A stretch of DNA of 64,000 nucleotides from Erysipelotrichaceae bacterium. Lineage in GTDB: Bacteria; Bacillota_I; Bacilli_A; RFN20; CAG-826. Within the stretch, counting starts at the first letter, position 1; every line of letters begins with the position of its first letter. The DNA is taken from positions 12,384-76,383 of the forward strand of contig DURD01000027.1 in NCBI GenBank assembly GCA_012837435.1. Reading direction: 5' to 3'. Made by a program: the position numbers and the translations under genes. The notes below the pieces were generated by a model. The model was not told the origin of the DNA. It did no database searches and saw only the letters and a program-made list of their open reading frames with translations. Positions 34,661 through 56,978 of this stretch are shown piece after piece.

Positions 34661-34725
34661 CGGTATGTCTAAAAATTCTTGTGTTTGTCCCAGTGTTTTT
34701 ATATTATGTAATCGAGGGTTATGTT

Positions 34726-35763
34726 ATGAAGAAAAAAAACGTATTGAATTTAATCAGATATCATTCTGAAAAAAATGATTTACAGTTCAATAATGAAGCT
34801 ATGGAAATTGCCCGATATTTCGATAGGATTGGAGACTATCAATTGTCTGAATACATTATGGCGTTAATAACTAATACAAACACTTTTGTGCCTCAGAATG
34901 AATCTTTTGAGGGATCCTTCTTTAAGCGGGTAGAGCTAAACAATAATCCTCTTCCTTTGCCTAAATCGATTGCAAATGATGTTTTGGGAATTATCAATGC
35001 AATTAATCACAAAGTAGGAGTAAATAAGTTTTTATTTCAAGGTGCTCCAGGAACAGGCAAAACTGAAACAGTTAAGCACATAGCAAGATTATTAGAACGT
35101 CAATTATACATGATTGAGTTTAGTGCATTGGTGGATAGCAAACTTGGTCAAACTGCAAAAAACATGACTTCTATGTTTGATGAAATAAATAAATTACCAA
35201 ATCCCCAAAACATTGTTATTTTATTTGATGAATTAGACGCTATTGCAATGGATAGAATTAACATTAACGACCTAAGAGAAATGGGACGTGTAACATCTAC
35301 ATTGCTCAAAGAACTAGACAAACTAAATGAGGACATTGTATTAATAGCTACCACAAATCTATATGATAAGTTTGACAAAGCATTAATTAGAAGATTTGAT
35401 TCAGTTATAGATTTCAACAGATATTCTAGAGAAGATTTGATTGAGATTTCAGAATCAATTTTTCATAGTCTAGTAAAGAAATTTAAAAACGTTAGTAGAG
35501 AAACGAGGTTGTTAAAGAAAATCATTAATCAAATGGAAACGATACCTTATCCAGGCGATTTAAATAATCTCATTAAAACATCACTGGCATTTAGTGATCC
35601 TAATGATGAATACGATTACTTAAGAAGGCTAATAAAAAACATATCGCCTAAAAGTAATGAATTATCGCCAAAGAATCTTAGCGAAAAAGGTTTTACAGTG
35701 AGAGAAATTGAAATACTCAGTGGCATATCTAAAAGTAAAGTCGCTAGAGAATTGAAGGGGTAA
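34726..35763 (+). CDS. Classic AAA+ ATPase with C-terminal HTH (IetA-like)
   Basis: The ATG at 34726 follows a GAGGG RBS. Walker A GAPGTGKT, Walker B ILFDELD, sensor-1 ATTN, RRFD arginine region. The C-terminal GFTVREIEILSGISKSKVAREL looks like an HTH. Confidence 0.8.
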   Translation: MKKKNVLNLIRYHSEKNDLQFNNEAMEIARYFDRIGDYQLSEYIMALITNTNTFVPQNESFEGSFFKRVELNNNPLPLPKSIANDVLGIINAINHKVGVNKFLFQGAPGTGKTETVKHIARLLERQLYMIEFSALVDSKLGQTAKNMTSMFDEINKLPNPQNIVILFDELDAIAMDRININDLREMGRVTSTLLKELDKLNEDIVLIATTNLYDKFDKALIRRFDSVIDFNRYSREDLIEISESIFHSLVKKFKNVSRETRLLKKIINQMETIPYPGDLNNLIKTSLAFSDPNDEYDYLRRLIKNISPKSNELSPKNLSEKGFTVREIEILSGISKSKVARELKG

Positions 35764-35769
35764 AATAAA

Positions 35770-38007
35770 ATGAATGAACTATTGCATTTAAAAGGACATT
35801 TTACTCAAAAATCACGACCAGGTGGCATTGGATCTCCGCAACTTAGAGGAGGCGCTCGCGTTAGTGTTGATGATCTAAAAAAACTCTATGATGACTTATC
35901 GAAAATGTTGTCTTTTTGGTCTGAAAATAAATTGTTTGATGGTGCACTAGTTAGTGCATATTACAATAAGGTCGCAGCAAAGAGCAATAGAATATCAGCT
36001 CTTTTATCAAGTGGTTCGAAAACCTCAGAAGAAACCATAGTGGGTGCAAGATTTTCTGATGACAAAGAAGGAAAACATATTATTACTCACTTTGTATCAC
36101 TCAAAGCTATTGAAAATTCAATGGTTTTTTTATCTGAAACTAGCCACATTTTAGAAAAGGAGTTTGGAGGTTCCATCATTGCTTCGGCATTTAATGAAAA
36201 AAATAACATAAATCGTATTAATTTTAAAAAATATAATATTTCAAAAACAAATTTCCAAAAAGTAATTGTCGACTCATCCTATATAGAAAAGTTCGATGTT
36301 CAATATAATAAGTTTGATTTAGATAAAAAATCGGTAATAACAGTATATGAGACTAATAGGGATATTAGAGAAGTTCTCAAAAGTTTGGGAATTGAAGTTT
36401 TTGATAACAAAATTATAGATAACACAACAATTTTGCTCGAGAGAGAACAAATAGAGAGCTTAATAGATAAAGCGCCATTTTTAATAGCGATGGCAACTGA
36501 AGATTTATCAAAAATAATGCCTTTCAAATCTAGTGAAACAAAAAACCAGTATGAAGCTTACATACCTCCACCAACTAACGAACCAATTGTTGGGGTGATT
36601 GATACATTATTTTTTAAAGATGTGTATTTTTCAGAATGGGTTGAATATCACCGGATTCTTGATAAAAATATTGAGGCCCACCCAGAGGATTATTCACACG
36701 GAACTGCTGTATCATCAATTATTGTCGATGGACCCGCTTTGAATCCAGATTTAGAGGATGGATGTGGAAGATTCAGAGTAAGACATTTTGGTGTGTCCAC
36801 TGGTGGTAAATTTAGTTCCTTTTCAATTATTAAATCGATTAAAGAAATTGTAAAAAATAACAAAGATATTAAAGTATGGAATTTGTCTTTAGGATCTGCT
36901 GATGAGGTTAATAAGAATTTCATTTCTTTAGAAGGATCTGTCTTGGATCAACTTCAATACGAAAATGATGTAATTTTTGTTGTTTCTGCTACAAATCAAA
37001 GTGCTAAAGAACCCCTAAAAAAGATAGGGTCTCCAGCAGATTCCATTAATTCTGTTGTCGTTAGTTCGGTTGGTAAAAATAATCGCCCAGCACCTTATTC
37101 AAGAAAAGGAATAGTGCTGTCATTTTTCACAAAACCTGATGTTGGTTATTATGGTGGCGTTTGTCCAGAATACATCAATGTATGTGAACCGTTGGGACTA
37201 ACAAAGGTAGGTGGCAGTTCTTACGCAGCCCCCTGGATATCTAGAAAACTAGCGTACCTTATTAATATTTTAGGTTTTAACAAAGAAATAGCGAAAGCGT
37301 TATTGATTGATGCGGCTATGGGATGGAATCCTAAAAAATATTACAAGAATCTAGCTCTTGTTGGGCACGGAATAGTTCCGACACATATCAATGACATTAT
37401 TTATTCTCCAAAAGATGAAATTAAATTTGTTGTATCCGGTATTTCTGAAAAATATGATACGTACAGTTACAAATTTCCTGTGCCTCTTAATAATAACAAG
37501 TACCCATATTTGGCTAAAGCAACATTGTGTTATTTTCCAAAATGTTCTAGAAATCAAGGTGTTGATTATACAAATACTGAACTAGATTTGTATTTTGGCA
37601 GGATAGATGGAAACTTAATTAAATCGCTTGATAATAATAGGCAAAGCACCGATGACGATGGTGACATACCACATTATATTACCGAAAAATTTGCCCGTAA
37701 AGAATTTCGAAAATGGGATAATGTCAAGCATATTCAAGATGAAATAAAAGGCAGAATCGCCGCTAGAAAATCCTATGATTATAAGTTGTGGGGTATGTCT
37801 GTAAAAAGAAAAGAACGTTTAGCAAGCAAAGATGGAGTAGGTATTAGATTTGGAGTAGTAGTAACTTTAAAAGAAATTAATGGTGTCAATAGAATTGATG
37901 ATTTTATTCAACTATGTAACTTAAGTGGCTGGTTAGTAAATAAAGTTGATGTACAAACTAAAATCGATATATACCAAAAATCTTACGAAGATATTGAATT
38001 TGAATAA
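35770..38007 (+). CDS. Cytoplasmic S8 (subtilisin-family) serine peptidase with large N- and C-terminal extensions (IetS-like)
   Basis: D-H-S triad in canonical order: VGVIDT, HGTAVSS, (NLSLGS), GGSSYAAPW. No signal peptide. 6-nt gap after the ATPase gene. Confidence 0.85.
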   Translation: MNELLHLKGHFTQKSRPGGIGSPQLRGGARVSVDDLKKLYDDLSKMLSFWSENKLFDGALVSAYYNKVAAKSNRISALLSSGSKTSEETIVGARFSDDKEGKHIITHFVSLKAIENSMVFLSETSHILEKEFGGSIIASAFNEKNNINRINFKKYNISKTNFQKVIVDSSYIEKFDVQYNKFDLDKKSVITVYETNRDIREVLKSLGIEVFDNKIIDNTTILLEREQIESLIDKAPFLIAMATEDLSKIMPFKSSETKNQYEAYIPPPTNEPIVGVIDTLFFKDVYFSEWVEYHRILDKNIEAHPEDYSHGTAVSSIIVDGPALNPDLEDGCGRFRVRHFGVSTGGKFSSFSIIKSIKEIVKNNKDIKVWNLSLGSADEVNKNFISLEGSVLDQLQYENDVIFVVSATNQSAKEPLKKIGSPADSINSVVVSSVGKNNRPAPYSRKGIVLSFFTKPDVGYYGGVCPEYINVCEPLGLTKVGGSSYAAPWISRKLAYLINILGFNKEIAKALLIDAAMGWNPKKYYKNLALVGHGIVPTHINDIIYSPKDEIKFVVSGISEKYDTYSYKFPVPLNNNKYPYLAKATLCYFPKCSRNQGVDYTNTELDLYFGRIDGNLIKSLDNNRQSTDDDGDIPHYITEKFARKEFRKWDNVKHIQDEIKGRIAARKSYDYKLWGMSVKRKERLASKDGVGIRFGVVVTLKEINGVNRIDDFIQLCNLSGWLVNKVDVQTKIDIYQKSYEDIEFE

Positions 38008-38023: not shown

Positions 38024-38173
38024 ATGGTTAGAAAAATAAGATCTGACGCTACCGTTGGCATTGTTGAAAAAACTCGTGGCCTTCCACCAGGCACCATAAG
38101 AAATAAAAATGGTAGAGACACTCGAAGTGATAAAACAGTAAAAACCATTCGAAAAGAATCGGGCAAAAAATAG
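38024..38173 (+). CDS. 49-aa highly basic protein with an internal RSDxTV repeat
   Basis: AAAGGAG RBS (38009-38015) lies 8 nt before the ATG at 38024, 16 nt after the peptidase stop. Sequence: MVRKIRSDATVGIVEKTRGLPPGTIRNKNGRDTRSDKTVKTIRKESGKK. Confidence 0.5.
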   Translation: MVRKIRSDATVGIVEKTRGLPPGTIRNKNGRDTRSDKTVKTIRKESGKK

Positions 38174-38367
38174 TTCTCTTGGCAATTTATAACTGGATAA
38201 AAGTTTAAAACTCAGAAGCAAATTGTTCGAAGCAAAAGCGCTTTTGAATAATGTGGTTCGTTTTACCTTAATTAATTATTAACAATTTACTTAGGAATGA
38301 TGCGAAACAACAAACAACAACAATTTTAGTAGACGACAATAAAATGTAAAAGGGAGGATATTTGTTT

Positions 38368-40296
38368 ATGGCATTATTTGATAGAAACAGCATAATCGGA
38401 TCAGAGTACGATTGGTTTAAAGATAAATTAGATCCAAGTTTTTCAATAGATGATGGACCAGAATCAAAAGTTATTTTTGGCTATAATGGCATCGGAAAAA
38501 CAACAATATTTAAATGTCTAAAAGAATTAAACAATAGTCTCGTTGATTTTTTAGATTATGACGAAGTTAAAGATTCCGTAAAGAAACAAAAAACAAATTT
38601 AACTATTGCAACAAACATCACTCAAATCGAAGAGATAAAAACAGAAATAGATAATCTAAAAACTTCGGTTGATTTAAAAAAAATCATTAATGAAAAAATT
38701 GGAATTACAAATGCTACTACTGCAAAAAAATTCGGAAGTAGAATTCAAGAAGTTCAAAAAGATGGAACTTTTGATGGATTTAAAAAGACGCAATCAGAAA
38801 TTGGTGAGGTAGAAAATCTTGTGGGAGACATTTCTCCCAAAGTCTTTTTTGAGATTCAGGAAGAATTATCTTCTGTGGTTGACGCAAAAGATGAATTAGA
38901 AAAAGAGAAGAAAAGACTTCTTTTTGCAGCGCTAGAAAACATAAACGAAACGCTAGATTCTAACGATAACGTTTGTCCTGTTTGTAATAGTCACATCGCT
39001 GATATTAAACAAGTGGTTCAAGATAAGATGAATTCATTAAGTAAGGTTAAATCAGATTTAATTTTGAAACTAAAAAAGTCAAACTATAGTGTAGATTCAA
39101 ATAAAATTAAGGAATTGGCGGAGGCATATGAATTAGTTAGCAATGACGATGATTTAAAAGCTGAATACATAGTATGTGGCGGCCTTTCATCTAATTATCC
39201 TGATATAACGAATAATCATAACAAAATCACAAAATCGAAATCGCAATTATCTGTTTTATTGGAACAGGCTGAAGACAGTTTTCGAAATGTTCAAAAAGTT
39301 ATTGATTTTCTAAAATCTGATTTAGAAAAATATTTTCATGTTGAACCAAAAAATGTTAAAACAGATTCTGAAAATTATTCTTTTTCCATTAAGTTTCCGA
39401 GAGAGACAAAAACTTACAGCACTGGTGAACTTAACTTAATTTGTTTTCTATTTAAGATGTATTCGTTCATAGGTAGCGATAAAACTACTATGATTTTTGA
39501 TGATCCAGTGTCAAGTTTAGACTTTATAAATCATTACAAAATTGCTTACGAGATTGTAAAAAATGCTAAGCCAAAAAAGACTATGGTAGTGTTGACGCAC
39601 TCCGTGGAGTTAATCAACTCAATTAATTCGCAGCATAAAGGATTTTTCAAATTTTACTATTTAGAAGAACGCAAGGGTACTTTAAGTATTCAAGAAATCT
39701 CCAAATCATACACGATAAAAGAGAATCCCAATATCATTACGTTAGACAATTTGCCTGAAATTAGTCAATTTAATGGGTTAATTGAAGCGCTTAAACGCAG
39801 AGAAACAAAGTCACAGAGGGATGGGAATTCGCTATATAAGTTGTTTCATTATACTGTAGAAGCTCAGCATCTCGACAATGATTTTTCAAAATTTTCTAAC
39901 CATAGTTTAATTAATTTAATTGACAGTTTCAAAGGATTTTCTGGTTCTGATTTTTTCACAAATTCAGCAGAAAAGATTATTCACCTAGTGGCACTTAGAG
40001 TATGGCTTGAAAAAAAGCTCTATGATTTAATACCTAGTGAAAGCAAAGATCTTAAGGATGAATTTTTATCAACTGATTCGCTTGGTGGAAAAATAAATCT
40101 CCTTTTGCCTCTTGATAAACTACCGTTAATTTCAACTCAGAGTGGCTTGAGTCGAGATGCTCTAATGAGCAAAAAAGTAATGTTAAATCAAAATATGCAT
40201 TACGATAGTCAAATAATGCCTTTTGCATACGCAATTAATTTATCATTTGATATGATTGAAGAGGAGATTGGGGAATTCAAGAAGTTGTTGCCATAA
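38368..40296 (+). CDS. ABC/SMC-like ATPase with coiled-coil insert and CxxC zinc hook (AAA_13; RloC/PrrC-like)
   Basis: GGGAGG RBS. Walker A GYNGIGKTT, a roughly 300-aa coiled-coil-like insert carrying CPVCNS, signature-like YSTGELNL, Walker B MIFDDPVSSLD, H-loop LTHS. The C-terminal region has RVWLE ... NQNMH. Confidence 0.6.
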   Translation: MALFDRNSIIGSEYDWFKDKLDPSFSIDDGPESKVIFGYNGIGKTTIFKCLKELNNSLVDFLDYDEVKDSVKKQKTNLTIATNITQIEEIKTEIDNLKTSVDLKKIINEKIGITNATTAKKFGSRIQEVQKDGTFDGFKKTQSEIGEVENLVGDISPKVFFEIQEELSSVVDAKDELEKEKKRLLFAALENINETLDSNDNVCPVCNSHIADIKQVVQDKMNSLSKVKSDLILKLKKSNYSVDSNKIKELAEAYELVSNDDDLKAEYIVCGGLSSNYPDITNNHNKITKSKSQLSVLLEQAEDSFRNVQKVIDFLKSDLEKYFHVEPKNVKTDSENYSFSIKFPRETKTYSTGELNLICFLFKMYSFIGSDKTTMIFDDPVSSLDFINHYKIAYEIVKNAKPKKTMVVLTHSVELINSINSQHKGFFKFYYLEERKGTLSIQEISKSYTIKENPNIITLDNLPEISQFNGLIEALKRRETKSQRDGNSLYKLFHYTVEAQHLDNDFSKFSNHSLINLIDSFKGFSGSDFFTNSAEKIIHLVALRVWLEKKLYDLIPSESKDLKDEFLSTDSLGGKINLLLPLDKLPLISTQSGLSRDALMSKKVMLNQNMHYDSQIMPFAYAINLSFDMIEEEIGEFKKLLP

Positions 40297-40834
40297 TGTT
40301 TTACAGAAAGACATAATCGATTTTGAATTCGTGCGATGAATTAACACTTAACAAGATTATCTAACTTTAAAGATTCAAGAGCTAGTGAAATAAAACATTC
40401 AATGTACATTAAGAAAAATATTAAATTACTTAAAAACATGCCGGTAAAGTTTTTATAAAGGTTTGAATAATTTTTTGTTTCGGTGTTCTTTTCTAGCCTT
40501 GGGGAGGAAGCAAAAAAGGATGAAATTATGATTGTTTTTAGTGGGGCTCAAATAGTTTTATTGTTGAAAGAATGTAGGAGCATTTTTTCGAACTTTTGTG
40601 TTTTCAGCCATAGTGGATTCACAAATTTATCAAAAATATTAATCACATTTTTATTGTTGAAATGAAAACAAGAATAACTATATCCCTTTACGTATAACTT
40701 TTATCAGCTCTAGGAAGACGCTATCAAGAATTAGATAAAATGCTTATAACCGTTAGAAGTGGAAGATTAAAAAGATCGGATCGACCGCGGCTAGTTACAT
40801 TAAAAACGCATAGAATAAAAAGTATTATATTTAA

Positions 40835-40900
40835 GAAACAAAGTAGGCAATTCGTCAATCATTGAATGATTGAAAAAGCCGAGCCTTTGTTTCTTTTTTT
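40835..40900 (+). terminator. Orphan compound hairpin terminator
   Basis: Outer 10-bp stem AGAAACAAAG (40835-40844) / CTTTGTTTCT (40885-40894). Inner 9-bp inverted repeat TCAATCATT/AATGATTGA (40855-40873). T7 run follows. Confidence 0.55.
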
Positions 40901-40940
40901 ATGGTGCAATATTAAAACATTTTGATAAGATAATAGTTAT

Positions 40941-42284
40941 ATGAAATTAAGTATTATTATCCCTTGTTATAATGAAGCTAAAGATATTGCTAAAAATGTG
41001 GATATCGTTAAAGAATATCTTTCTATTCATAACATTGAACATGAACTAATTCTTGTCAACGATGGTAGCAAAGATAACACTAAAGAAATAATAGAATCTA
41101 TTCCTGATGTTACCGCTTTATCGTATGAACCGAATAGGGGCAAAGGAGGAGCGGTCAAATACGGAATAGAACAGGCGACTGGCGATTATGTTTTATTCAT
41201 GGATGCGGATTTATCGACAGATTTATCCGCGATAGAAAAAGTTATAGAACTCATTCCTTCCTATGACTTTATTTTAGGTTCAAGACATGCGAAAGGGAGT
41301 GTTATCAAAAAGAAACAACCTTTACTGAGAGTCTTTATCGGTTGGGGTTGTCGAGTCATCGTCAATATGATGTTCCGTTTAAAGCTTAAAGATACTCAAT
41401 GTGGTTTTAAAGCGATAAGAACGGAAGTGGCTAAAAAGATTGTTTCTAAACAATTAATCAATGACTTTGCTTTTGATGTTGAATATATCTATATCGCTAA
41501 ACTAAACAAGATATCCATGTATGAACTAGGTATTACCTGGTCCGATGATCGAGATAGTAAAGTCTCTCCTTTTAGATCATCTGTCAAGTTCTTTAAAGAT
41601 TTAGCTTTTATTAAAAGGAATAAGAAATATTATCCTTTTGATAGTCAGGAACAAGTTAACACTCATTCTGGTAAGGGTGTCGTAGTGTTAATGGTTTCTT
41701 TAATCATTATTCTAGTCGCAGTCTTTATCGCTTTCTTGTTCGTTCAACATAATGAAGACAATACTCAAAGTAGCCAATCCGATAATCTAATTAATGAAAC
41801 AATCAATAATAAGTTTATCGATGTGGTTAATGACCAAATCGAAGCGGATGGTTTTGCTATCGATAATATAAAAACCATTAGTGCAGCTTTTATCACTGAT
41901 AACTATCCCACTAATTTCAGTTTAAATATCGCTTGTCATAGCGAAGATAATGTCTATATCTATAAACTCATAGATTATCCTTATCTTAACGATAACGATG
42001 ATACTGCGATTGAATATTTATTAAACAATAATGAACTCGATTTAAATCAAGGTGTGATTTTAACAAAATATTCATTAGATAAAGAAGTTAGAGATGATAA
42101 TAAAATATATAAATACATAACTTACAACAATAAATTCAGTGGTTATTACCTTAATAACAACGTCTATCAAATATACTTTAATCTTCCGTATGTAGATGAT
42201 AATAATCTATTCCAAAACCCCGCTAGTTTTAATGTTGATCAAGATAATCAGCTATATAGTTATTATTCTTACCTTAATCAATAA
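40941..42284 (+). CDS. GT2 polyprenyl-phosphate glycosyltransferase-like enzyme fused to a TM helix and an N/D/Y-rich C-terminal domain
   Basis: IIIPCYNEA, NDGSKDNT and DADLSTD motifs. TM helix VVVLMVSLIIILVAVFIAFLFV, then about 185 aa with no recognisable motif. Confidence 0.8.
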   Translation: MKLSIIIPCYNEAKDIAKNVDIVKEYLSIHNIEHELILVNDGSKDNTKEIIESIPDVTALSYEPNRGKGGAVKYGIEQATGDYVLFMDADLSTDLSAIEKVIELIPSYDFILGSRHAKGSVIKKKQPLLRVFIGWGCRVIVNMMFRLKLKDTQCGFKAIRTEVAKKIVSKQLINDFAFDVEYIYIAKLNKISMYELGITWSDDRDSKVSPFRSSVKFFKDLAFIKRNKKYYPFDSQEQVNTHSGKGVVVLMVSLIIILVAVFIAFLFVQHNEDNTQSSQSDNLINETINNKFIDVVNDQIEADGFAIDNIKTISAAFITDNYPTNFSLNIACHSEDNVYIYKLIDYPYLNDNDDTAIEYLLNNNELDLNQGVILTKYSLDKEVRDDNKIYKYITYNNKFSGYYLNNNVYQIYFNLPYVDDNNLFQNPASFNVDQDNQLYSYYSYLNQ

Positions 42285-42459: not shown

Positions 42460-43596
42460 ATGAAACTACTAAAGTTAAAAGTTTTAAGCGACTATAAAAT
42501 GTTGAAAAAGGGATTTGAGATTAATTTTTTAACTAAAACAAGAGTGAATAAAAATTCTGATAATGATGATCTAATTGAATTAGAACCAGGTTTTTATTAT
42601 CCAGTAGAAACGGCATTCGTCGGAAAGAATTCTTCTGGCAAAACAACGACACTATCTTTTATTAGAACGGTTATGTATTTTTTGCGTTCTGGTAGAATCA
42701 GTTCTGATTTTCTTATTGAACAATTCAAATTTTCTTTTGAATGCTTATTTTACTATGATAAAACAATCTACAAGTATTATGGCGAATTTGAAAAAAATGA
42801 ATTAGTAAATAGAGATTACTTAATTATCAAAGATGAAATGTTGCAAAAGGCTATCTATAGGAAAAATTACACAAAAGATTTGAGTAATGCAAATTTTAAG
42901 AAAGATGAGCAGTTTGTTCCTAATATTAACGGAGATACATCCAGTATTTCAAAAAAACGCTTAATTGATTTTTCTATTTCGATTGACACTCTTGAAGGAG
43001 ATGAAACAAGCTTATTCATTATCGGTAATCGCATTGATGAAATTTATGGAAAAGAAGTCTTTAAAACTCTGATTAATATGTTCGACGACAGCATTGAATA
43101 CATCAAAAAAACAAAGGGAAATAATGATAACGCAGAATGTATTTTTAAACGTATCAATAAACCAGAAAAATATGTTGATTTTTCTTACCTAAGAAATCAT
43201 TTATCAGCGGGTACCTATCGCGGTCTTTACTTATTCGCCGCTTCAATTTTGGCTTTTAATTATGGGGGCACCATTTTAATTGATGAAATTGAAAGGAGTT
43301 TTAACAAGAATTTAATCGAAAATTTATTCATGCTATTTAGAGATAAACGCATCAATAAAAAAGGGGCATCCATTATCTATTCAACCCATTATGCTGAACT
43401 GCTGGATACTAGTGATAGATGTGATAACATCAACGTACTTCATAGAAATGGTGATTCTATTACCGTGAACAACATGCATTCCAGTTATAAAGTGAGAACG
43501 GATTTATCTAAATCTAGTCAGTTCGAGCAAAATGCTTTTGATAATCACATTAATTACGAAAAATTAATGGATTTGAGGAGAAATCTTATCAAATGA
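42460..43596 (+). CDS. ABC-type (AAA_21-like) ATPase
   Basis: Walker A GKNSSGKTT, signature-like LSAGTYRG, Walker B ILIDEIERSF, H-loop STHYAE. Confidence 0.75.
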   Translation: MKLLKLKVLSDYKMLKKGFEINFLTKTRVNKNSDNDDLIELEPGFYYPVETAFVGKNSSGKTTTLSFIRTVMYFLRSGRISSDFLIEQFKFSFECLFYYDKTIYKYYGEFEKNELVNRDYLIIKDEMLQKAIYRKNYTKDLSNANFKKDEQFVPNINGDTSSISKKRLIDFSISIDTLEGDETSLFIIGNRIDEIYGKEVFKTLINMFDDSIEYIKKTKGNNDNAECIFKRINKPEKYVDFSYLRNHLSAGTYRGLYLFAASILAFNYGGTILIDEIERSFNKNLIENLFMLFRDKRINKKGASIIYSTHYAELLDTSDRCDNINVLHRNGDSITVNNMHSSYKVRTDLSKSSQFEQNAFDNHINYEKLMDLRRNLIK

Positions 43597-44099
43597 AAAT
43601 AATCTTAGCGTGTGAAGGTCAAACGGAAGTATATCTGCTCGAGAATTTGATTAATAGAGGATATTTACATTTTGGAAACGATTTACTTTTGGATAAACCA
43701 ATCAAGCTAAGACAATTAAAAGAAATTGAATCTATCATTAATACTCTTCCAATAGATGAATACATTGATATTTATCGTATCGGAGATACTCTGAAAGAAA
43801 AATTAAGTAAAAAAGGCTTTGAACTTCGTGAAAAACACATCAAAGAGATAAAAATCTGTACAAAAACTGAAATTGAGATTCTCGTGATTATTAACGAAAA
43901 TCTTTTGGATGAGTATGAGAAAAATAAGAATACTATAAAACCCAAACAATTTATTAAACAACACATTAAAAATTTTGATCCAAAAGAATATTTTGATAAA
44001 CACGATATGTATCCCGCTATTTGTGAGTACAAAAGAATTAAACAACATAAAAAAGATGAGTGGTGTTTAAAAGACTTAATCGATAAATTTTCTAAATGA
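43593..44099 (+). CDS. Small RloB/DUF4276-like (TOPRIM-related) partner protein
   Basis: ATGA overlap with the ATPase gene. The N-terminal MKIILACEGQTEVYLLENL resembles the EGxTE start of the RloB/DUF4276 families, with a later TEIEILVII. The assignment is tentative. Confidence 0.45.
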   Translation: MKIILACEGQTEVYLLENLINRGYLHFGNDLLLDKPIKLRQLKEIESIINTLPIDEYIDIYRIGDTLKEKLSKKGFELREKHIKEIKICTKTEIEILVIINENLLDEYEKNKNTIKPKQFIKQHIKNFDPKEYFDKHDMYPAICEYKRIKQHKKDEWCLKDLIDKFSK

Positions 44100-44215: not shown

Positions 44216-44593
44216 ATGAATTATCAAAATCATCCTATGAAAATATCGTATCGAAATAAGAAAGATGAAAAATTATGTAACAACACTAAAACCGCTATTA
44301 AGAAAATGGGAAAGGAAGTGGCTTACAAATTAGCGGACCTACTAAACTTAATTGAATCATTTCCAAATCTTAAAAGTTTATGGGGAATGCCTCAATACCG
44401 CTTGCATGCACTTAAGGGTAATCGCCAACATCAATATTCGCTTGTTATTAGTAAATCAAGTGGATGGAGATTAATAGTGTATCCGCTTGATGAAGATGGA
44501 AATTTTTTGAAAGCTGGTAATAAGGAAATGGAAATGCTAGCAAAAGCGGTCAATGTGGAAATTGTGGAGGTCAGTAATCATTATGAGGAATAA
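44216..44593 (+). CDS. HigB-like (plasmid-killer/RelE-fold) toxin
   Basis: YRLHALKGNRQHQYSLVISKSSGWRLIV resembles the HigB signature (L.G....qySirin..wRi.F), and the protein ends in ...IVEVSNHYEE. The true start may be the ATG at 44237. Confidence 0.6.
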   Translation: MNYQNHPMKISYRNKKDEKLCNNTKTAIKKMGKEVAYKLADLLNLIESFPNLKSLWGMPQYRLHALKGNRQHQYSLVISKSSGWRLIVYPLDEDGNFLKAGNKEMEMLAKAVNVEIVEVSNHYEE

Positions 44594-45668
44594 AGAAGGA
44601 AGAGTAGTCAATCATCCCGGTGTCTATTTAAAAGACGCAATGGAAGAACTGGGTTTAAACCAATCTGAATTTGCCTTGAGAACCGGGTTATCAACTAAAA
44701 ACGTTTCAACTCTTGTCAATGGGGAAAGCGATATTACTTTTGATGTTGCTGTCAGACTTGCCGCATTTTTTAATAACGAAGTAGAAGGGTGGATTAATTT
44801 GCAAACAAAATACAACTTATACAAATATAGAGAAAAAAGAGAAAAAGAACTTGAAGAAGAATGGCGAATTGTCCAAATGTTTAACAAAGAATTTTTATCC
44901 AAATGTTGCAATGTTACCATCAATAATGAAAATAAAGAAAAAACGATTAGTGAGATGAGAAATGTTTTTAGGGTTGGAACTCTACAAGCACTAAAAAAAG
45001 ATGATATGTATGCATTTTGTAAAACTAGCGTCAAAAAAGACATTGATGAAAAAACGATTATTCTAAGAAATGCTTGGATATCTATCGCAGAAACAGTTGC
45101 TAGAGATATAAAGTGTTCTACTTTTGATAAAGACAAAATTATTAGTGAAGTACCATTTTTGAGAAGTTTGACATTAAAAAGACCAGAAGAATTTCAGCCA
45201 TTATTAAAATCATTCCTAGCTAGTGCTGGAGTTAAACTCGTTATTTTACCTTATTTATCTAATAGCAACGTCAGTGGTGTGACAAAATGGATGAGAGATG
45301 ATAATAGTGTCATGGTCGCGATTAATGACTGTGGGAAAGTAGCTGATAGAATATGGTTTTCAATTTTTCATGAACTGGGTCACGCTATTAGGAACCACAA
45401 GCGTCATTTAACAATATCTTACGAAAAAAATAAGATTGAGGATGAAGATGAAAAGGCTGCTAATAAGTTTGCTCAAGATAGTTTGATTGATCCTATAGCA
45501 TATAGTGATTTTGTAGCTAAACGACATTTTGATTTGAGCAGTATCGATCGTTTTGCCGAGCAACAAGGAGTTGCGGATTTTATCGTTATTGGAAGACTTA
45601 AGAAAGATAAAATTTTAGGTTGGACACAATATCAAAACAGGATAGTTAAATATTCTGTAGTGAATTGA
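44583..45668 (+). CDS. HigA-type XRE HTH fused to an ImmA/IrrE (COG2856) zinc metallopeptidase
   Basis: The ATG at 44583 overlaps the toxin stop. HTH HPGVYLKDAMEELGLNQSEFALRTGLSTKNVSTLVNG. HEXXH motif HELGHA in the C-terminal domain. Confidence 0.8.
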   Translation: MRNKEGRVVNHPGVYLKDAMEELGLNQSEFALRTGLSTKNVSTLVNGESDITFDVAVRLAAFFNNEVEGWINLQTKYNLYKYREKREKELEEEWRIVQMFNKEFLSKCCNVTINNENKEKTISEMRNVFRVGTLQALKKDDMYAFCKTSVKKDIDEKTIILRNAWISIAETVARDIKCSTFDKDKIISEVPFLRSLTLKRPEEFQPLLKSFLASAGVKLVILPYLSNSNVSGVTKWMRDDNSVMVAINDCGKVADRIWFSIFHELGHAIRNHKRHLTISYEKNKIEDEDEKAANKFAQDSLIDPIAYSDFVAKRHFDLSSIDRFAEQQGVADFIVIGRLKKDKILGWTQYQNRIVKYSVVN

Positions 45669-46199: not shown

Positions 46200-46210
46200 G
46201 TAATTTGACT

Positions 46211-47224
46211 ATGGAAAATAATTTTTATAATGAAATAAAAAGCATATTGATAAATGCAAGAAACAAAGTTTATACTACAGCTAATTTTGCTATGGTTGAG
46301 GCATATTGGAATATAGGTAAAAAAATCATCGAGGAACAGAGCGGCAAGGATACCGCAGAATATGGACAAGGATTAATTAAAGAATTATCGAAGCAAATGA
46401 CCAAAGACTTCGGTAAAGGATTTACAGTTACAAATTTAAAATACATGCGTCAATTTTATCTCACATTTCCAAATGGTCACGCACTGCGTGGCGAATTGAG
46501 CTGGACACATTATCGCAGTTTGATACGTGTAGAAAATGAAAACGCAAGAAACTTTTATTTAGAAGAAGCCATAAAATCTAATTGGAGTACGAGACAACTT
46601 GACAGACAGATAAACAGTTTTTTCTATGAAAGACTCTTATCAAGCCAAAATAAAGAAGAGGTGTCAAAAGAGATACTGAAACTGGAGAAAAGTAAGACAC
46701 CGGAAGACATCATAAGAGATCCGTACGTGTTGGAGTTTTTAGGTTTAGAGCCAAATACCGATTTTTATGAAAGTGATTTGGAACAAGCTTTAATAACTCA
46801 TTTGCAGAAGTTTCTTCTAGAATTAGGCAGAGGATTTTCCTTTGTTGCAAGGCAGAAAAGATTCACATTTGACGGGAGGCATTTCAGAATTGACCTCGTT
46901 TTCTATAACTATATTTTAAAATGCTTTGTTTTAATAGATTTGAAGATTGGAGATTTAACACACCAAGATTTAGGACAAATGCAGATGTATATTCATTATT
47001 ACGAAAGAGAAATGATGAATGAAGGAGACAATCCGCCGATAGGAATTATCTTATGTGCTGATAAAAGTGATTTGGTTGTTAAATACACTTTACCTAAAGA
47101 TGAAAAACAAATATTTGCATCCAAATATAAATTATATCTGCCAAGTGAAGAAGAACTATTGAATGAATTAAATAAAGAGTATTTATCAATGGAAAGGTAT
47201 ATTGATAAGAAAAAAAGAAAATGA
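46211..47224 (+). CDS. YhcG/DUF1016 PD-(D/E)xK nuclease-family protein
   Basis: DUF1016-type N-terminus (NARNKVYTTANFAMVEAYWNIGKKI). C-terminal nuclease core RIDLVFYN...FVLIDLKIG...GQMQMY. Confidence 0.8.
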   Translation: MENNFYNEIKSILINARNKVYTTANFAMVEAYWNIGKKIIEEQSGKDTAEYGQGLIKELSKQMTKDFGKGFTVTNLKYMRQFYLTFPNGHALRGELSWTHYRSLIRVENENARNFYLEEAIKSNWSTRQLDRQINSFFYERLLSSQNKEEVSKEILKLEKSKTPEDIIRDPYVLEFLGLEPNTDFYESDLEQALITHLQKFLLELGRGFSFVARQKRFTFDGRHFRIDLVFYNYILKCFVLIDLKIGDLTHQDLGQMQMYIHYYEREMMNEGDNPPIGIILCADKSDLVVKYTLPKDEKQIFASKYKLYLPSEEELLNELNKEYLSMERYIDKKKRK

Positions 47225-47293
47225 TTGAGTAGTAAATTCGGTCCACGCAACCCCATCGAAAATGGTTTGACAAACTGATAATATTTGAGTCAG

Positions 47294-47323
47294 AGCGATT
47301 AGGAAAAGTCCCAATCGCTTTTT
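47294..47323 (+). terminator. Rho-independent terminator
   Basis: Stem AGCGATT (47294-47300) / AATCGCT (47313-47319), 12-nt loop, T-run. Confidence 0.6.
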
Positions 47324-47461
47324 AATTGCACGAAAAATGGAGAAAACAATATCTAAGAAAATAAAAAAAGAAACAAACTTTCCCACCAAAGATCGCTTTA
47401 CCTCTTACCCCTGAATGAGACAAATTAATGGCGTGCATAAACAAATTAATTAACATTTTTA

Positions 47462-47489
47462 TTGTGGAAGTTTTAATATACGCTATAAT
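47462..47489 (+). promoter_or_regulatory. Candidate promoter of the orphan ATPase
   Basis: TTGTGG (47462-47467), 16-nt spacer, TATAAT (47484-47489). AAGAGGGA RBS at 47524-47531. Confidence 0.35.
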
Positions 47490-47537
47490 GTATTTGTTCA
47501 AAAAACTTGAACTAATATAAAATAAGAGGGAAGAAAT

Positions 47538-48656
47538 ATGGCAGTTTTAACAATTGAATTTGATAACTTTCTTTGTTTCGACAACTTTGTAGCGGATTTT
47601 ACCTATCCTAAAAAATTGGTCAATAGTTCTTTAAAAAACGAATGTTTGAAAAAATTTCCAAATATAAGGGTCAGGAAGGCAAATATCATCATAGGTTCTA
47701 ATGCTTCTGGCAAGACGTCTTTTGGTCGAGCGATATGGCATGTTTTCATGTTCTTGAAAAATAAAGAAGCAATTAAGATTACGAGCTTGATAAAAAACGT
47801 GAATAAAGATACAAACATCTTAATGGATTATATTGATGCTGATGGTCTTTTTTCTCGTATTGAAATTTTGGCAAAGGCGAACAATCAAGGAATTGATGTC
47901 AAAATAAGACAACTGGAAGCAAAACCTAACGATACATATGAAATGCTAGTTAAGAGATTGCCAAACGATGTATTGTTCGAGAATTACATCGTCGCATTAG
48001 AAAAAATAATTCCTCTTGGGTGGAATTTTGTTTTTCCTTCTATCGAAAGCGGTGGTTTTGAACTCATTTATTGTGATTTTATAAAAGAAGAAGAGAAACC
48101 TCTTTTTTGCAAAATATTTAAAAATGTCTTAATTATTATGGATGTTTCAATTAAAACGGTGTATCCATCCAACGAAGTTGAAAATTCATATATCATAGTT
48201 TTTGTCGATAATACCAAAATTCATATTTCTCATGGTGATAAAATTAATGAAATAAAAAAACTTTCGTCTGGGACTAAATATGCCGCTAACATTGCGCAAA
48301 TTTTATTTTGCATTTCTAAGTATAAAAATGGTTTTTATTTTGTGGATGAACAATTTTCGTATGTCAATTCAGACATAGAAATTGCTTGTTTGTCAAAAAT
48401 GATTTCTCTGTTAGGCGACAGCGAACAACTGTTCTTTACCACTCATAATACGGAAATATTGAATCTTAATCTCCCCATACATTCTTTCAATTTCCTAGTT
48501 AAAGAAAAAAATGAAGATGGTGTGCAAATTAAGTGGCTCAACGCTTCTCAATTTGAAAAAAGAAATAACGTGAGAATAAAAAATCTTTACGATAACAATT
48601 ATTTTGACATTAGTCCGAATGTTAACCCGATTTTTGACATTGGAGAAAGTTGTTGA
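47538..48656 (+). CDS. Orphan ABC-type (AAA_21-like) ATPase
   Basis: Walker A GSNASGKTS, signature-like LSSGTKYA, Walker B-like YFVDEQFSY, H-loop TTHNTE. Same size and motif order as the 42460 ATPase. Confidence 0.7.
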   Translation: MAVLTIEFDNFLCFDNFVADFTYPKKLVNSSLKNECLKKFPNIRVRKANIIIGSNASGKTSFGRAIWHVFMFLKNKEAIKITSLIKNVNKDTNILMDYIDADGLFSRIEILAKANNQGIDVKIRQLEAKPNDTYEMLVKRLPNDVLFENYIVALEKIIPLGWNFVFPSIESGGFELIYCDFIKEEEKPLFCKIFKNVLIIMDVSIKTVYPSNEVENSYIIVFVDNTKIHISHGDKINEIKKLSSGTKYAANIAQILFCISKYKNGFYFVDEQFSYVNSDIEIACLSKMISLLGDSEQLFFTTHNTEILNLNLPIHSFNFLVKEKNEDGVQIKWLNASQFEKRNNVRIKNLYDNNYFDISPNVNPIFDIGESC

Positions 48657-50135: not shown

Positions 50136-50227
50136 TGCAAAATATGGAATGAAACACTTGCAAAATATGGAATAAAATGTCTGCAAAATATGGAATGAAA
50201 CACTTGCAAAATATGGAATTGAGTTAT
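50136..50227. repeat. Four head-to-tail 23-bp direct repeats (core TGCAAAATATGGAAT)
   Basis: Units start at 50136, 50159, 50182 and 50205. Units 1 and 3 are identical (TGCAAAATATGGAATGAAACACT). Units 2 and 4 share the 15-nt core. Confidence 0.95.
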
Positions 50228-50232
50228 ATAAT
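50204..50232 (+). promoter_or_regulatory. Candidate promoter embedded in the last repeat
   Basis: TTGCAA (50204-50209), 17-nt spacer, TATAAT (50227-50232). Confidence 0.4.
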
Positions 50233-50251
50233 TCACTTGAGAATGATGAAT

Positions 50252-51514
50252 ATGACGAATATTAACTATCGAAAAAGATTAATTGAATCAAGAATTAAAA
50301 AGACAATGGGTTTCAGTGGTGGCGTAGTTATTGAGGGCGCCAAATGGGTCGGTAAATCAACTACCGCTAGTCTTTTTGCCAATACTATAGTAAAACTACA
50401 AAACCCAATAATTAGAGAAAAATATAAAGCCCTTGCAACCATTTCAAAAGAAAAAGTGCTGGAAGGTGAAAAACCTATTTTGTTTGACGAATGGCAAGAT
50501 GTTCCTGAAATATGGGATTTTATTCGGATTGATATCGATGAATATAATCATAAGGGAACCTATCTTCTAACGGGGTCAACAAGAAAACAAAACGTAAAAA
50601 CATCCCATACAGGAACAGGAAGAATTAACTCTGTTTATATGAGGCCGATGAGTCTATATGAAAGCGGTGAGTCTAATGGAAAGGTATCGCTAAATGATTT
50701 GTTTAATCATCCCGATAATATCCCCTCTATTTCCATGTCTACGATAAGCATTGATGAGATGGCAAAGCTAATTTGCAGAGGCGGATGGCCAGGAAGTCTC
50801 GATTTAGAAGAAGACTTCCAATTTGAGCTTCCCAAACATCTTTTAAAAAGCATTATCGAAAAAGACTCTGATGAAGTTGATGGAATATCTAAAGATAAAG
50901 AAAAATTAGCAAAAATTGTTAGAAGTTATGCCAGAAACATCTCTACCTTAGCAACAAATTCAACAATCTTTAAAGATCAATCATCTGAGGAAATAGTAAG
51001 TTTCAAAACCTTTGATACTTATGTGAACGCTCTAAAAAGATTGTTTATTGTAGAAGATGTTTTGCCGTGGTCTCCGAGCATTAGAAGTTCTTCAAGACTT
51101 AGAAAAGGTAGCAAAAGACAATTCGTAGATCCTAGTATTGCCGCTGCTGCTTTAGATATTTCTCCTAAGAAATTATTAAATGATTTTAAAACCTTTGGTT
51201 TTTTATTTGAATCAATTGTTACACGAGATGTCAGAATTTATTCAGAAGAAATTGGTGGTAAAGTTTATCATTACAATGATTCAACGGGATTGGAAGTCGA
51301 TTTAATTGTTGAATTAAGAGATGGTTCATGGGGAGGTATTGAAGTTAAGCTAGGTAGTAATGAATTAGATAAAGCGAGCGCTCATCTATTAAAACTAGCG
51401 GATATTTCTGAAGTTAAACCCTCATTTCTAATGATAGTGACTAATACTGAGATGGCCTATCAAAGAAAAGAAGATGGCATTTATGTTGTACCTCTTGGTT
51501 GTCTAGGGGCTTAA
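50252..51514 (+). CDS. AAA_14/DUF4143-family ATPase
   Basis: Walker A GAKWVGKST, Walker B ILFDEWQ, and a C-terminal DUF4143-like region. The start is moved to ATG 50252 because the ORF-track 5' end (50177) is made of the tandem repeats. Confidence 0.7.
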   Translation: MTNINYRKRLIESRIKKTMGFSGGVVIEGAKWVGKSTTASLFANTIVKLQNPIIREKYKALATISKEKVLEGEKPILFDEWQDVPEIWDFIRIDIDEYNHKGTYLLTGSTRKQNVKTSHTGTGRINSVYMRPMSLYESGESNGKVSLNDLFNHPDNIPSISMSTISIDEMAKLICRGGWPGSLDLEEDFQFELPKHLLKSIIEKDSDEVDGISKDKEKLAKIVRSYARNISTLATNSTIFKDQSSEEIVSFKTFDTYVNALKRLFIVEDVLPWSPSIRSSSRLRKGSKRQFVDPSIAAAALDISPKKLLNDFKTFGFLFESIVTRDVRIYSEEIGGKVYHYNDSTGLEVDLIVELRDGSWGGIEVKLGSNELDKASAHLLKLADISEVKPSFLMIVTNTEMAYQRKEDGIYVVPLGCLGA

Positions 51515-55076: not shown

Positions 55077-55340
55077 TCCCCATAACCTAAATAAATTTCT
55101 AACAAAATTACCTCTTACAACTTCTAACCTCATAAAGAATCATAGATGGGTGTGGTTTTATTTTTGTTTCACATTCAAGTTAACTTTGATGTAAAGTAAA
55201 ATTAATAAAAAATTGTTGGTAGTATATAATATAAAATATTATAAAACTTTATCTATGCTTTTAAGTAAACTTTTGATTACATTTATTGTTGCAAAAGGAT
55301 AAGGAAGTATTCTATTATAATGCAAAATGAGGAAATTGGT

Positions 55341-56978
55341 ATGACTATTGGTGAAAAGATTACCCATCTAAGAATCGTTAACAACATCTCGCAAGAAGAA
55401 TTAGCCGCTATTTTGAAGATTTCTCGACAATCTCTCTCTAAATGGGAAAACGATGACGTTTCCCCTTCTTTAGATAAAGTTAGAGAATTATGTTCTTTAT
55501 TCAAAGTAAGCGCCGATGAACTAATCGATGATAATATCGTTATCCATAAAGGAAGAAGAATTGAACTACCAGATGAAAACATTAAGACCAAATACTTTGG
55601 TACTGATGGATTTAGAGGAGAAGCTAACGAATCGTTAAACTCCGACCGCGCTTATAAAATCGGTCGTTTCCTCGGTTGGTTTTATAGCAATCCCAAATAC
55701 ACTATGCAAAAGGAAGACTATCGACCAAAGATTGTTATCGGTAAGGATACGAGAAGATCTTCTTATATGCTCGAATACGCAGTGGCAGCGGGAGCCGCCT
55801 CCAGCGGAGCGGACGTCGAACTTTTACACGTTACTACCACGCCATCGGTCAGTTATATCGTGCGACAAGATTGTTTCGATTGTGGGGTAATGATTACCGC
55901 ATCTCATAATCCCTTCTATGATAATGGCATTAAGATTATCAATAGCCATGGAGAAAAGATTGAAGATGGGATCGCCTATCTAGCGGAAGCTTATCTAGAA
56001 GGCGACTTTAAAACGTTAGAAATTGAGGGCGAGGATTTACCTTTTGCTAAAAGAGAAAACATCGGCACGATTAACGATTATTCCTCTGGTAGAAATAGAT
56101 ATATCGGTTATTTAATCTCCTTAGCTAAACATAGCATGAAGAAATTAAAAATTGGTTTAGATACCGCGAATGGCGCTGCTTGGATGATCGCTAAATCAGT
56201 CTTTGAAGCTTTGGGCGCACAAGTGTTTATCATTAACAATAAACCCAATGGCTTAAACATTAACTTAAATGCCGGTAGCACCCATATTCAGGAATTCTCA
56301 AAATTTGTCGAACAAAATAAGTTGGATGTCGGCTTTGCGTTTGATGGCGACGCCGATCGATGTATCGCCGTAGATGAAAACGGTAAAGTAGTCGATGGCG
56401 ATAAGATTTTGTATCTTTTAGCTAACAAGCTAAAACGCGAAGACGTGTTAGAAAAAGATACAGTGGTGGCGACGGTCATGTCTAATTCTGGTTTAGAGAA
56501 AGCTTTAAAACAAATCGGTGTCGAGATGGTTAGAACTCAAGTAGGCGATCGATTTGTCTTTGAAAAGATGATGGAAGAGGGATATGTTCTCGGAGGAGAA
56601 CAATCGGGACATATCATCATTAGAAAATACGCTACAACAGGGGACGGCATGTTGACAGCAATTATGATTGCTGAAGAGATGCTCGAACAAAAAGAAACAT
56701 TATCAAAACTCGTTTCACCTGTTAAAGTATTCCCCCAAGTACTGAAAAGTGTCCGCGTCACCGATAAAAACGCGGTAATGGATGATAAAGTCGTCTTAGC
56801 GAGATTTGAAGAAATAAATAAAGAAATTAGCGATAACGGAAGAGCCTTATTAAGACAATCTGGCACGGAACCAGTTGTGAGAATTATGGTGGAAAATTCT
56901 ACTTTAGAAAAATGCAACGAATATATCGATCGCATTTATAACGTCATCAAGAAAAGAGGTTATGTGTTAAGTGAGTAA
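55341..56978 (+). CDS. glmM: XRE-family HTH fused to phosphoglucosamine mutase
   Basis: GAGGA RBS at 55329-55333. N-terminal IGEKITHLRIVNNISQEELAAILKISRQSLSKWENDD, about 30 aa of linker, then KYFGTDGFRGEAN, TASHNPFYDNGIK, FDGDADR and GEQSGH. Confidence 0.85.
   Translation: MTIGEKITHLRIVNNISQEELAAILKISRQSLSKWENDDVSPSLDKVRELCSLFKVSADELIDDNIVIHKGRRIELPDENIKTKYFGTDGFRGEANESLNSDRAYKIGRFLGWFYSNPKYTMQKEDYRPKIVIGKDTRRSSYMLEYAVAAGAASSGADVELLHVTTTPSVSYIVRQDCFDCGVMITASHNPFYDNGIKIINSHGEKIEDGIAYLAEAYLEGDFKTLEIEGEDLPFAKRENIGTINDYSSGRNRYIGYLISLAKHSMKKLKIGLDTANGAAWMIAKSVFEALGAQVFIINNKPNGLNINLNAGSTHIQEFSKFVEQNKLDVGFAFDGDADRCIAVDENGKVVDGDKILYLLANKLKREDVLEKDTVVATVMSNSGLEKALKQIGVEMVRTQVGDRFVFEKMMEEGYVLGGEQSGHIIIRKYATTGDGMLTAIMIAEEMLEQKETLSKLVSPVKVFPQVLKSVRVTDKNAVMDDKVVLARFEEINKEISDNGRALLRQSGTEPVVRIMVENSTLEKCNEYIDRIYNVIKKRGYVLSE

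Follow-up and report, generated by a model that had tools for sequence, protein, structure and literature searches.

The 64,000-nucleotide stretch of DNA analyzed here (contig DURD01000027.1 of an Erysipelotrichaceae bacterium; referred to below as the window) carries a gene for a protein of 642 amino acids that resembles RloC in its ATP-binding cassette (ABC) head and putative zinc hook, and departs from it in its C-terminal domain. RloC is a wobble-nucleotide-excising anticodon nuclease (COG4694, Pfam AAA_13) and PrrC is the tRNA-Lys anticodon nuclease of the prr locus; the two are the classic NTPase-gated tRNA ‘suicide’ nucleases. An earlier reading of the same DNA, made without database searches (the sequence-only reading), had described the protein as a zinc-hook ATPase of this kind with a possible anticodon-nuclease C-terminus, and had given its length as 643 residues; the gene comprises 643 codons including the stop. 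Translation begins at the ATG at 38368, and a TTG start at 38362, which came from a mechanical open reading frame (ORF) call, was dropped because it lies too near the Shine-Dalgarno sequence. The strand opposite 38368-40296 is full of stops and has no open frame. Promoter-like sites around the gene were fewer than in shuffled sequences in a promoter/terminator scan. The gene and the parts of its product are listed below, each with the evidence for it.

38350-38357, + strand: Shine-Dalgarno sequence AAGGGAGG, 10 nt 5' of the ATG, read from the sequence
38368-40296, + strand: complete coding sequence, 642 residues plus stop, from translation
38368-38616, + strand: N-terminal lobe of the ABC ATPase head, residues 1-83 (strands and helices in the AlphaFold2 model, pLDDT ~90; RloC Walker A by hhalign, P = 2.8e-5)
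38479-38505, + strand: Walker A/P-loop GYNGIGKTT, residues 38-46 (N40 and K44 invariant)
38617-39336, + strand: helical insert, residues 84-323 (almost wholly helical by DSSP of the AlphaFold2 model)
38974-38985, + strand: C-P-V-C, putative zinc hook, residues 203-206 (conservation; alignment with RloC CPFC; weak Rad50-hook profile matches)
39337-39699, + strand: C-terminal lobe of the ABC ATPase head, residues 324-444 (hhalign to RloC, P = 2.1e-10, 30% identity; PADLOC PrrC match at residues 373-443 of relatives)
39415-39429, + strand: ABC signature variant YSTGE of the SxGE type, residues 350-354 (conservation of S351, G353 and E354)
39487-39522, + strand: Walker B and D-loop TMIFDDPVSSLD, residues 374-385 (D378, D379 and D385 invariant)
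39592-39603, + strand: H-loop LTHS, residues 409-412 (conservation of T410 and H411)
39700-40293, + strand: family-specific, all-alpha C-terminal domain, residues 445-642, the presumed effector (domain model; found in this architecture alone)
39847-39849, + strand: invariant His494 within an FHY motif (128/128 relatives)
39973-40011, + strand: long-helix motif K536 ... L-R544-V-W-L-E548-K (conservation; helix 529-553 in the AlphaFold2 model)
40171-40212, + strand: motif K602-K603-V-M-L-N607-Q-x-x-H611-Y-x-S614-Q615 (conservation of K603, N607 and H611)

The translation contains every motif quoted in the sequence-only reading, namely GYNGIGKTT (residues 38-46), CPVCNS (within VCPVCNS, 202-208), YSTGELNL (350-357), MIFDDPVSSLD (375-385), LTHS (409-412), RVWLE (544-548) and NQNMH (607-611). 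Their significance can be judged from an alignment of 128 full-length relatives that are 27-55% identical, to which all conservation figures given here refer. Eight positions of the head and hook (N40, K44, C203, C206, S351, D378, D379, and D385) and four of the C-terminal domain (H494, R544, E548, and N607) are 100% conserved; elsewhere in the head and hook conservation reaches 99% for G353, 98% for E354, 96% for P204 and T410, and 94% for H411, and in the C-terminal domain 99% for H611 and K536 and 98% for K603. The quoted motifs therefore exceed chance.

A search of 5.8e9 proteins returned 62 clusters of full-length homologs (620-690 residues, 27-55% identity), almost all from metagenomes, with the few named sources being metagenome-assembled genomes of Cloacimonetes, Bacilli, and Acholeplasma; the identical protein was called on five metagenome contigs. 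The C-terminal domain, followed by an exhaustive hmmsearch of 1.84e9 representatives, is carried by 149 clusters at 50% identity, and essentially all of the matches share an architecture of 620-700 residues or are fragments of it. Three longer relatives bear the same domain (P0159, 839 residues; P0147, 717; P0154, 701), and P0159 has ~165 extra residues beyond it, indicating that further architectures occur in the family. No family member was found among 72,556 plasmids or among 50,697 phage genomes, and a plasmid or phage origin of the family was rejected on this basis.

The whole protein, modeled with AlphaFold2 on the family alignment (mean predicted local distance difference test score, pLDDT, 88.9; predicted template modeling score, pTM, 0.75), has arms of ~112 and ~111 residues on either side of the hook. 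Residues 196-212, the only long non-helical stretch of the insert, fall at its mid-point and hold the CPVC motif, in agreement with the helical insert bearing a CxxC motif that had been described from the sequence. Positions 270-500 of the AAA_13 profile align to the insert in relatives. We infer that the arms pack antiparallel, that the hook binds zinc, and that the invariant residues cluster in three dimensions. A separate model of the C-terminal domain reached a pLDDT of 86.5 and a pTM of 0.84; in the whole-protein model, N607 is the last residue of helix 596-607.

Sets of PrrC and RloC proteins were assembled for comparison. Back-translation of the EcoPrrC peptide KYGDSNKSFSY (PMC3025547) and a scan of a genome collection gave 40 PrrC loci, identified as such by the PADLOC PrrC model (9.4e-147, full length) and by the names given in the sources, ‘anticodon nuclease’ among them. 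A tblastn search of plasmids with PrrC added a diverse series down to 30% identity, and in all eight of the diverse examples the gene lies between hsdS and hsdR/M. The weak tail of this search contained four stand-alone RloC-type proteins of 728-877 residues (L059-L062), in which a CPFC, CEFC or CVLC stands at the center and the C-terminal motifs are of the MRNILEYYF...INRHSH type. All four match PADLOC PDC-S06 end to end (E = 1e-136 to 1e-236), so that PDC-S06 amounts to the RloC family; the PADLOC outputs obtained contained no model named RloC. Searching the 5.8e9-protein database with a PrrC profile gave close PrrC orthologs only, and no RloC, among the best 120 matches listed. An early hhalign comparison with a narrow PrrC profile (effective number of sequences, Neff, ~2) was uninformative and was repeated with the diverse PrrC and RloC sets. 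MAFFT misplaced the R-x3-E motif of the Rhizobium protein in the four-sequence RloC alignment, and this sequence was left out of the query.

Judged by sequence family, the N-terminal ~445 residues belong to the PrrC/RloC clade of ABC ATPases (Pfam AAA_13, PADLOC PDC-S06). Of ten relatives scanned, seven exceed the AAA_13 gathering threshold of 36 bits, the highest at 54.7. PDC-S06 matches the protein itself at 1.4e-14 (residues 143-415 only) and its relatives down to 8e-18. The PADLOC PrrC model, which gave no match to the protein at E <= 1, aligns in relatives to residues 373-443 only (profile positions 170-242 of 372, E ~1e-8). Across the family, the PDC-S06, AAA_13, and PrrC models cover only residues ~120-460, that is the insert and the second lobe of the head; scans of the protein with Pfam, NCBIfam, and PADLOC otherwise returned generic ABC-transporter tails. 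Comparison of the family with RloC by hhalign connects the region of the signature, Walker B, and H-loop (P = 2e-10, 30% identity), the Walker A (P = 3e-5), and the CxxC hook with the CPFC of RloC (P = 0.008), and the three matches are collinear.

Details of the nucleotide-binding motifs agree with this placement. The SxGE signature is common to PrrC (SKGEE) and RloC (SEGEK) and appears here as YSTGE, and the string DDPVSSLD is identical in this protein and PrrC. The residues essential for the NTPase of PrrC (Lys, Thr, Asp-Asp, and Thr-His; PMC3025547) all have counterparts, including those of the H-loop, which in PrrC is TTHS with T250 and H251 essential (PMC3025547). Matches of the family profile to Rad50 hook structures are weak and region-specific (1l8d, E = 0.17; 5gox, E = 0.36), and searches of PDB sequences with the protein and the family profile matched only ABC heads. 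With AAA_13 in seven of ten relatives, head matches to PDC-S06 and PrrC, and collinear hhalign matches to RloC, the Rad50-like layout of RloC that the sequence-only reading had proposed is supported. Best matches to SMC/RecF-type proteins, which the same reading had named as an outcome that would count against it, were found at the level of the head fold but not among sequence families: a Foldseek search with the whole model ranked the heads of SMC, cohesin, condensin, and Rad50 proteins at the top (E = 4e-6 to 1e-3), with AriA also among the matches.

The C-terminal domain has seven invariant or near-invariant polar residues: H494, K536, R544, E548, K603, N607, and H611. Their order, H...R-x3-E-K...K...N-x3-H, mirrors that of the residues essential in PrrC, H295/H315...R320-x3-E324...R349...N352-x3-H356 (PMC3025547). 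An Asn-x2-His spacing had been quoted earlier; the real spacing is Asn-x3-His (N607/H611), and it is the same in PrrC. All invariant positions of the domain hold polar or charged residues, a pattern typical of a catalytic site and not of a scaffold. With two histidines available for acid-base chemistry and Arg, Lys, and Asn for the phosphate, the constellation fits a metal-independent RNase. A nucleotide-gated toxic RNase, possibly a tRNase, is most likely and is our best guess at the mechanism; it draws on analogy and the conservation pattern, not on demonstrated homology.

We put at about an even chance the reading that this is a stand-alone, single-gene defense protein of the abortive-infection type, similar to RloC, with an effector domain that is either different or has diverged beyond recognition. 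In the mechanism that this suggests, two protomers would pair through head-to-tail, NTP-dependent engagement of their heads and a Zn2+ ion common to their hooks, and the head and hook would hold the C-terminal domain silent. A phage-induced cue would turn the C-terminal domain on; for RloC, such cues are DNA damage or DNA ends and changes in the nucleotide pool. The domain would then poison the cell enzymatically, most probably as an RNase that needs no metal and relies on two histidines for acid-base catalysis, supported by Arg, Lys, Asn, and Glu, and its target might be the anticodon loops of tRNAs. Translation would be halted, and the infection aborted.

A number of results weigh against this reading. 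The window protein is itself below threshold in Pfam (AAA_21, 25.4 against 27 bits) and has no AAA_13 match at E <= 1, and PDC-S06 is itself only a computational candidate. The C-terminal domains of 31 members matched no Pfam family at E <= 10, HEPN families included; the domain profile matched no PDB sequence at E <= 10; and the best Foldseek matches of the domain model had E = 2.1 in the PDB and E = 0.76 in BFVD, with no HEPN entry among them. Comparisons of the domain with PrrC/RloC by hhalign were all non-significant, with P = 0.25, 0.44, and 0.11 for 31 target sequences and 0.085 and 0.27 for 128, and the motifs paired varied by run, ALRVWLEK with LRNLYEK twice and KLFHY with the KvFHYfSH of RloC once. 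The published RloC signature is Arg-X3-Glu-X36-52-His, often with Ser before the His (PMC2610378). Here the arrangement is R544-x3-E548-x62-H611, with a Glu-to-His distance of ~54 in the shortest subgroup, and no Ser precedes His611. The HEPN motif Rx4-6H, with a polar residue after the Arg (PMC3710099), is absent: the nearest invariant basic residue, K603, is at -8 from H611, and positions -5 to -7 are L606, M605, and V604. The loop that holds H611 (609-616) is the sole segment of the model with a pLDDT below 50.

Positive controls show how these negative results should be read. Pfam AAA_13 aligned genuine PrrC through residue 360 (profile to 687 of 713), catalytic motifs included; its alignments in relatives of the window protein end at profile positions 580-617, short of 620-690. 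In two of the four RloC-type controls (L059 and L062) the alignment of the PADLOC PrrC model takes in the nuclease domain (profile to 347-355 of 372), and in the other two (L060 and L061) it halts at the ATPase head; the C-terminal domain matched neither the PADLOC RloC nor the PrrC models. Comparison of the PrrC and RloC nuclease domains with each other by hhalign gave P = 2.6e-3 with four RloC sequences, a run in which both motifs were paired correctly, and 7e-4 with 52; these domains were first linked by manual adjustment (PMC2610378). An hmmsearch of the 1.84e9 representatives with the C-terminal-domain profile found 149 proteins and no PrrC or RloC among them, and the reverse search with an RloC domain profile found RloC-type fragments only and none of this family. 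The negative Foldseek result excludes a resemblance to solved HEPN folds; it does not reach the variant fold of PrrC/RloC, for which no structure was found in the PDB. The anticodon-nuclease-type C-terminus suggested by the sequence-only reading thus fares poorly, with P = 0.085-0.44 against 7e-4 to 2.6e-3 in the controls and with the family models ending at the head. That reading would have been undermined by a C-terminus that neither aligned with anticodon nuclease domains nor kept their catalytic residues; the alignment is indeed missing, but the residue types R, E, N, and H do not vary and follow one another as in PrrC. The C-terminal domain is family-specific, and its kinship with the tRNA-cutting domain is not supported by any statistical test. 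As far as sequence comparison goes, the protein is an RloC-like zinc-hook ABC ATPase that fails RloC/PrrC membership at the nuclease domain.

It seems unlikely, although not implausible, that the protein is a true but highly diverged PrrC/RloC anticodon nuclease, in which an ACNase (HEPN-type) domain has acquired insertions that lengthened the Glu-to-His distance and a Lys in place of the motif Arg, and which cuts the anticodon loops of tRNAs. Outside this domain the protein demonstrably falls in the RloC clade, with which it is collinear; R544-x3-E548-K and N607-x3-H611 are invariant and stand in the PrrC order, and the best local hhalign matches, both with PrrC and with PrrC and RloC together, pair ALRVWLEK with LRNLYEK. 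The marginal similarity of the PrrC and RloC nuclease domains to each other, and a PDB in which neither is represented, also leave room for such divergence, as a negative Foldseek result cannot exclude the fold. Set against this, no hhalign comparison fell below P = 0.085 and the enlarged test paired another motif (KLFHY); neither AAA_13 nor the PADLOC PrrC model, which both cover the nuclease domain of PrrC and of two of the four RloC-type proteins, ever reaches that far in this family; the reciprocal profile searches leave the families unconnected; and the Glu-His spacing and the missing Ser-His and Rx4-6H motifs depart from the published patterns. We give somewhat more credence, still a little short of an even chance, to the idea that the C-terminal ~200 residues are an effector domain not recognized before: a toxin or nuclease of new fold, related neither to HEPN nor to any solved structure, which became joined to a zinc-hook ATPase switch of the RloC type. 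If so, the family would be a new single-gene abortive-infection system, with a Rad50-like sensor and a new chemistry or cellular target.

The surroundings of the gene bear on both its defensive role and the possibility that it acts with a partner. The window has a low GC content, corresponds to metagenome contig JGI 3300002898, and holds a defense island interleaved with polysaccharide-synthesis genes, in the order IetA/IetS, the gene discussed here, a GT2 glycosyltransferase, an AbiLi-like ATPase, a PD-Lambda-2_B-like gene, PDC-S02, and further ATPases.

34681-38007: IetA (AAA+ ATPase) and IetS (S8 subtilase), a complete pair directly upstream of the gene (PADLOC 7.7e-40 and 3.7e-63)
38024-38173: very basic 49-residue ORF MVRKIRSDATVGIVEKTRGLPPGTIRNKNGRDTRSDKTVKTIRKESGKK, with a strong AAGGAG ribosome-binding site and a start 17 nt past the ietS stop
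40297-42284: non-coding gap of 644 bp after the gene, then a GT2 glycosyltransferase amid the defense genes
42460-44099: AbiLi-like AAA_21 ATPase (PADLOC 4.9e-27), with a 4-nt overlap with a 168-residue ORF
44216-45668: helix-turn-helix (HTH) and M78 peptidase protein, PD-Lambda-2_B-like (3.2e-23), preceded by an overlapping 125-residue ORF without matches
46205-48656: PDC-S02 (DUF1016/YhcG nuclease, 6e-149) at the start of the region, and an AAA_21/SMC_N-type ATPase at 47538-48656
50177-51514: AAA_14 and DUF4143 ATPase

Either the defense genes alternate with those of a surface-polysaccharide locus, or the island was inserted into that locus. No tRNA genes were found in the window. The earlier statement that it lacks type I restriction-modification (R-M) genes holds for what was searched: domain analysis of 20 window ORFs, including the largest, gave no HsdM, HsdS or HsdR, and tblastn of the window with HsdS, HsdM, and HsdR fragments from eight prr loci gave only noise (all E at least 0.099). 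The 168-residue ORF had no match in Pfam or PADLOC and may form with the AbiLi-like ATPase a two-gene AbiL-like system with an unrecognized partner. A single ORF at 55320-56978 joins an N-terminal HTH_3 domain (residues 11-70) to a complete phosphoglucomutase; the fusion, an unusual one, may be real or may be an artefact produced by the upstream start codon.

Two neighbors were considered as partners and rejected. IetAS is absent from all other contexts of the family. The 49-residue ORF, which has no family match, was not found near homologs and was dismissed as a partner or antitoxin; it could belong to the IetAS operon. Eight other members examined in their own contexts adjoin AbiE (twice), AbiH (twice), a reverse transcriptase, HNH, HipA, a methylase with MutH, PIN, recombinases, and a relaxase, and no conserved partner gene emerged from the nine contexts (the window and the eight relatives). 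The second-closest homolog (P0003, L067 702-7621; 53% identity) has a DUF2130 gene 18 nt downstream and a type I HsdM gene ~3.7 kb downstream, the sole proximity to R-M genes among the nine. Another member (P0044, L066) stands alone in an rml/ABC2 polysaccharide locus, and two on unrelated contigs (P0024 on L004 and P0031 on L009) closely follow an AbiEi(DUF6088)/AbiEii toxin-antitoxin pair. The Rhizobium RloC-type gene (L060) also has an AbiE pair nearby, and this may be a recurrent island neighborhood. The family amounts to a compact, partner-free defense candidate of ~150 clusters, most of which come from uncultured anaerobes and gut bacteria.

These contexts argue against a second possibility, which we consider improbable, that the C-terminal domain is a non-catalytic sensor or adaptor for a phage protein, DNA ends or a nucleotide within an SMC/AriA-like ATPase sensor, with toxicity supplied in trans, by ATP depletion or by DNA clamping. 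ABC-ATPase defense sensors that lack a nuclease of their own are known, Foldseek matched one of them (AriA of PARIS), and no enzyme resembles the domain; yet none of the nine contexts offers a conserved partner gene, and invariance confined to His, Lys, Arg, Glu, and Asn is what would be expected for catalysis and not for a binding surface that coevolves with phage. A housekeeping ATPase of the Rad50/SbcC/SMC type, acting in DNA repair or chromosome maintenance, is very improbable indeed, since the top Foldseek matches and the zinc-hook-like CPVC that would favor it are offset by TM-scores of ~0.2 that reflect a generic ABC head only, the lack of a nearby Mre11/SbcD or kleisin partner, short arms (~110 residues each), an extra C-terminal domain of 200 residues that Rad50 and SbcC do not have (PMC2610378), a rare and patchy distribution (149 clusters in 1.84e9 representatives), and a location in defense and mobile islands.

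The preferred reading, a single-gene defense protein built on an RloC-like switch, is of interest for several reasons. The RloC sensor, head and zinc hook, is kept while the C-terminal module is different or unrecognizably diverged, and the family offers a natural domain-swap experiment on a Rad50-like switch that controls a toxic effector. A new RNase active site made up of His/His/Arg/Glu/Asn/Lys may emerge from its study. Current annotation tools miss the family, or label it as a partial PDC-S06 match only. PDC-S06/RloC-like proteins are already known, and the mechanism set out above is one that we only infer.

Among known systems, RloC offers the closest comparison. Both are stand-alone genes, and both have an ABC head with an SxGE signature, a DDP(V/I)SSLD D-loop, and a TH H-loop, a helical insert with a central C-P-x-C that splits this head, an extra C-terminal domain after it, and occasional proximity to R-M genes; partial PDC-S06 matches (E = 1e-14 to 1e-18) also link them. 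The differences are that RloC has 728-877 residues against 642 here, with the arms of the window protein about one third shorter, that PDC-S06 covers genuine RloC-type proteins end to end and this one only in part, and that the PNxxRRxxE and K/R-x6-SH blocks of 52 RloC-type domains are absent from it. RloC is further characterized as a zinc-responsive, DNA-dependent ATPase; its catalytic-triad mutants are no longer toxic and build up to ~10-fold higher protein levels, and its hook mutants are hyperactive. PrrC shares an ABC head of the same clade with an identical DDPVSSLD, and essential residue types in the same order in the C-terminal part. In contrast to the window protein, with its 642 residues and 240-residue insert, PrrC has ~370-440 residues and no coiled-coil/hook insert; its motifs KYGDSNKSFSY and FTEDLFYWDNDL (PrrC box, LARP motifs) are absent from the translation here; it lies in an hsd operon in eight of eight cases, whereas no R-M genes were found in the window; and the PrrC model leaves the C-terminal domain of this family unaligned.

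The likeness to Rad50, SbcC, and T4 gp46 consists of a split ABC head with a helical arm, which in the window protein is presumed to be antiparallel, and a CPVC-type hook. CPVC is the same tetrapeptide as in the hook of P. furiosus Rad50. The window protein differs from them in its much shorter arms, its added C-terminal domain, the absence of Mre11/SbcD, and its defense-island context. Fusions of HEPN and ABC domains (APECO1_4465-like and ERFG_01251-like families; PMC3710099), which were compared with it by description, also have an alpha-helical C-terminal domain and occur in mobile or defense islands, and HEPN dimers form a composite site; unlike these, it has no Rx4-6H motif, no Pfam HEPN match, and no structural match to a solved HEPN domain. 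Finally, AriA (PARIS), AbiLi, PtuA (Septu), and LmuB (Lamassu) give weak head-level matches in PADLOC or Foldseek and share the general logic of an ATPase sensor that controls a toxic effector. In those systems the effector is a separate protein (AriB, AbiLii, PtuB or LmuA), whereas in the window protein the candidate effector is fused to the ATPase.

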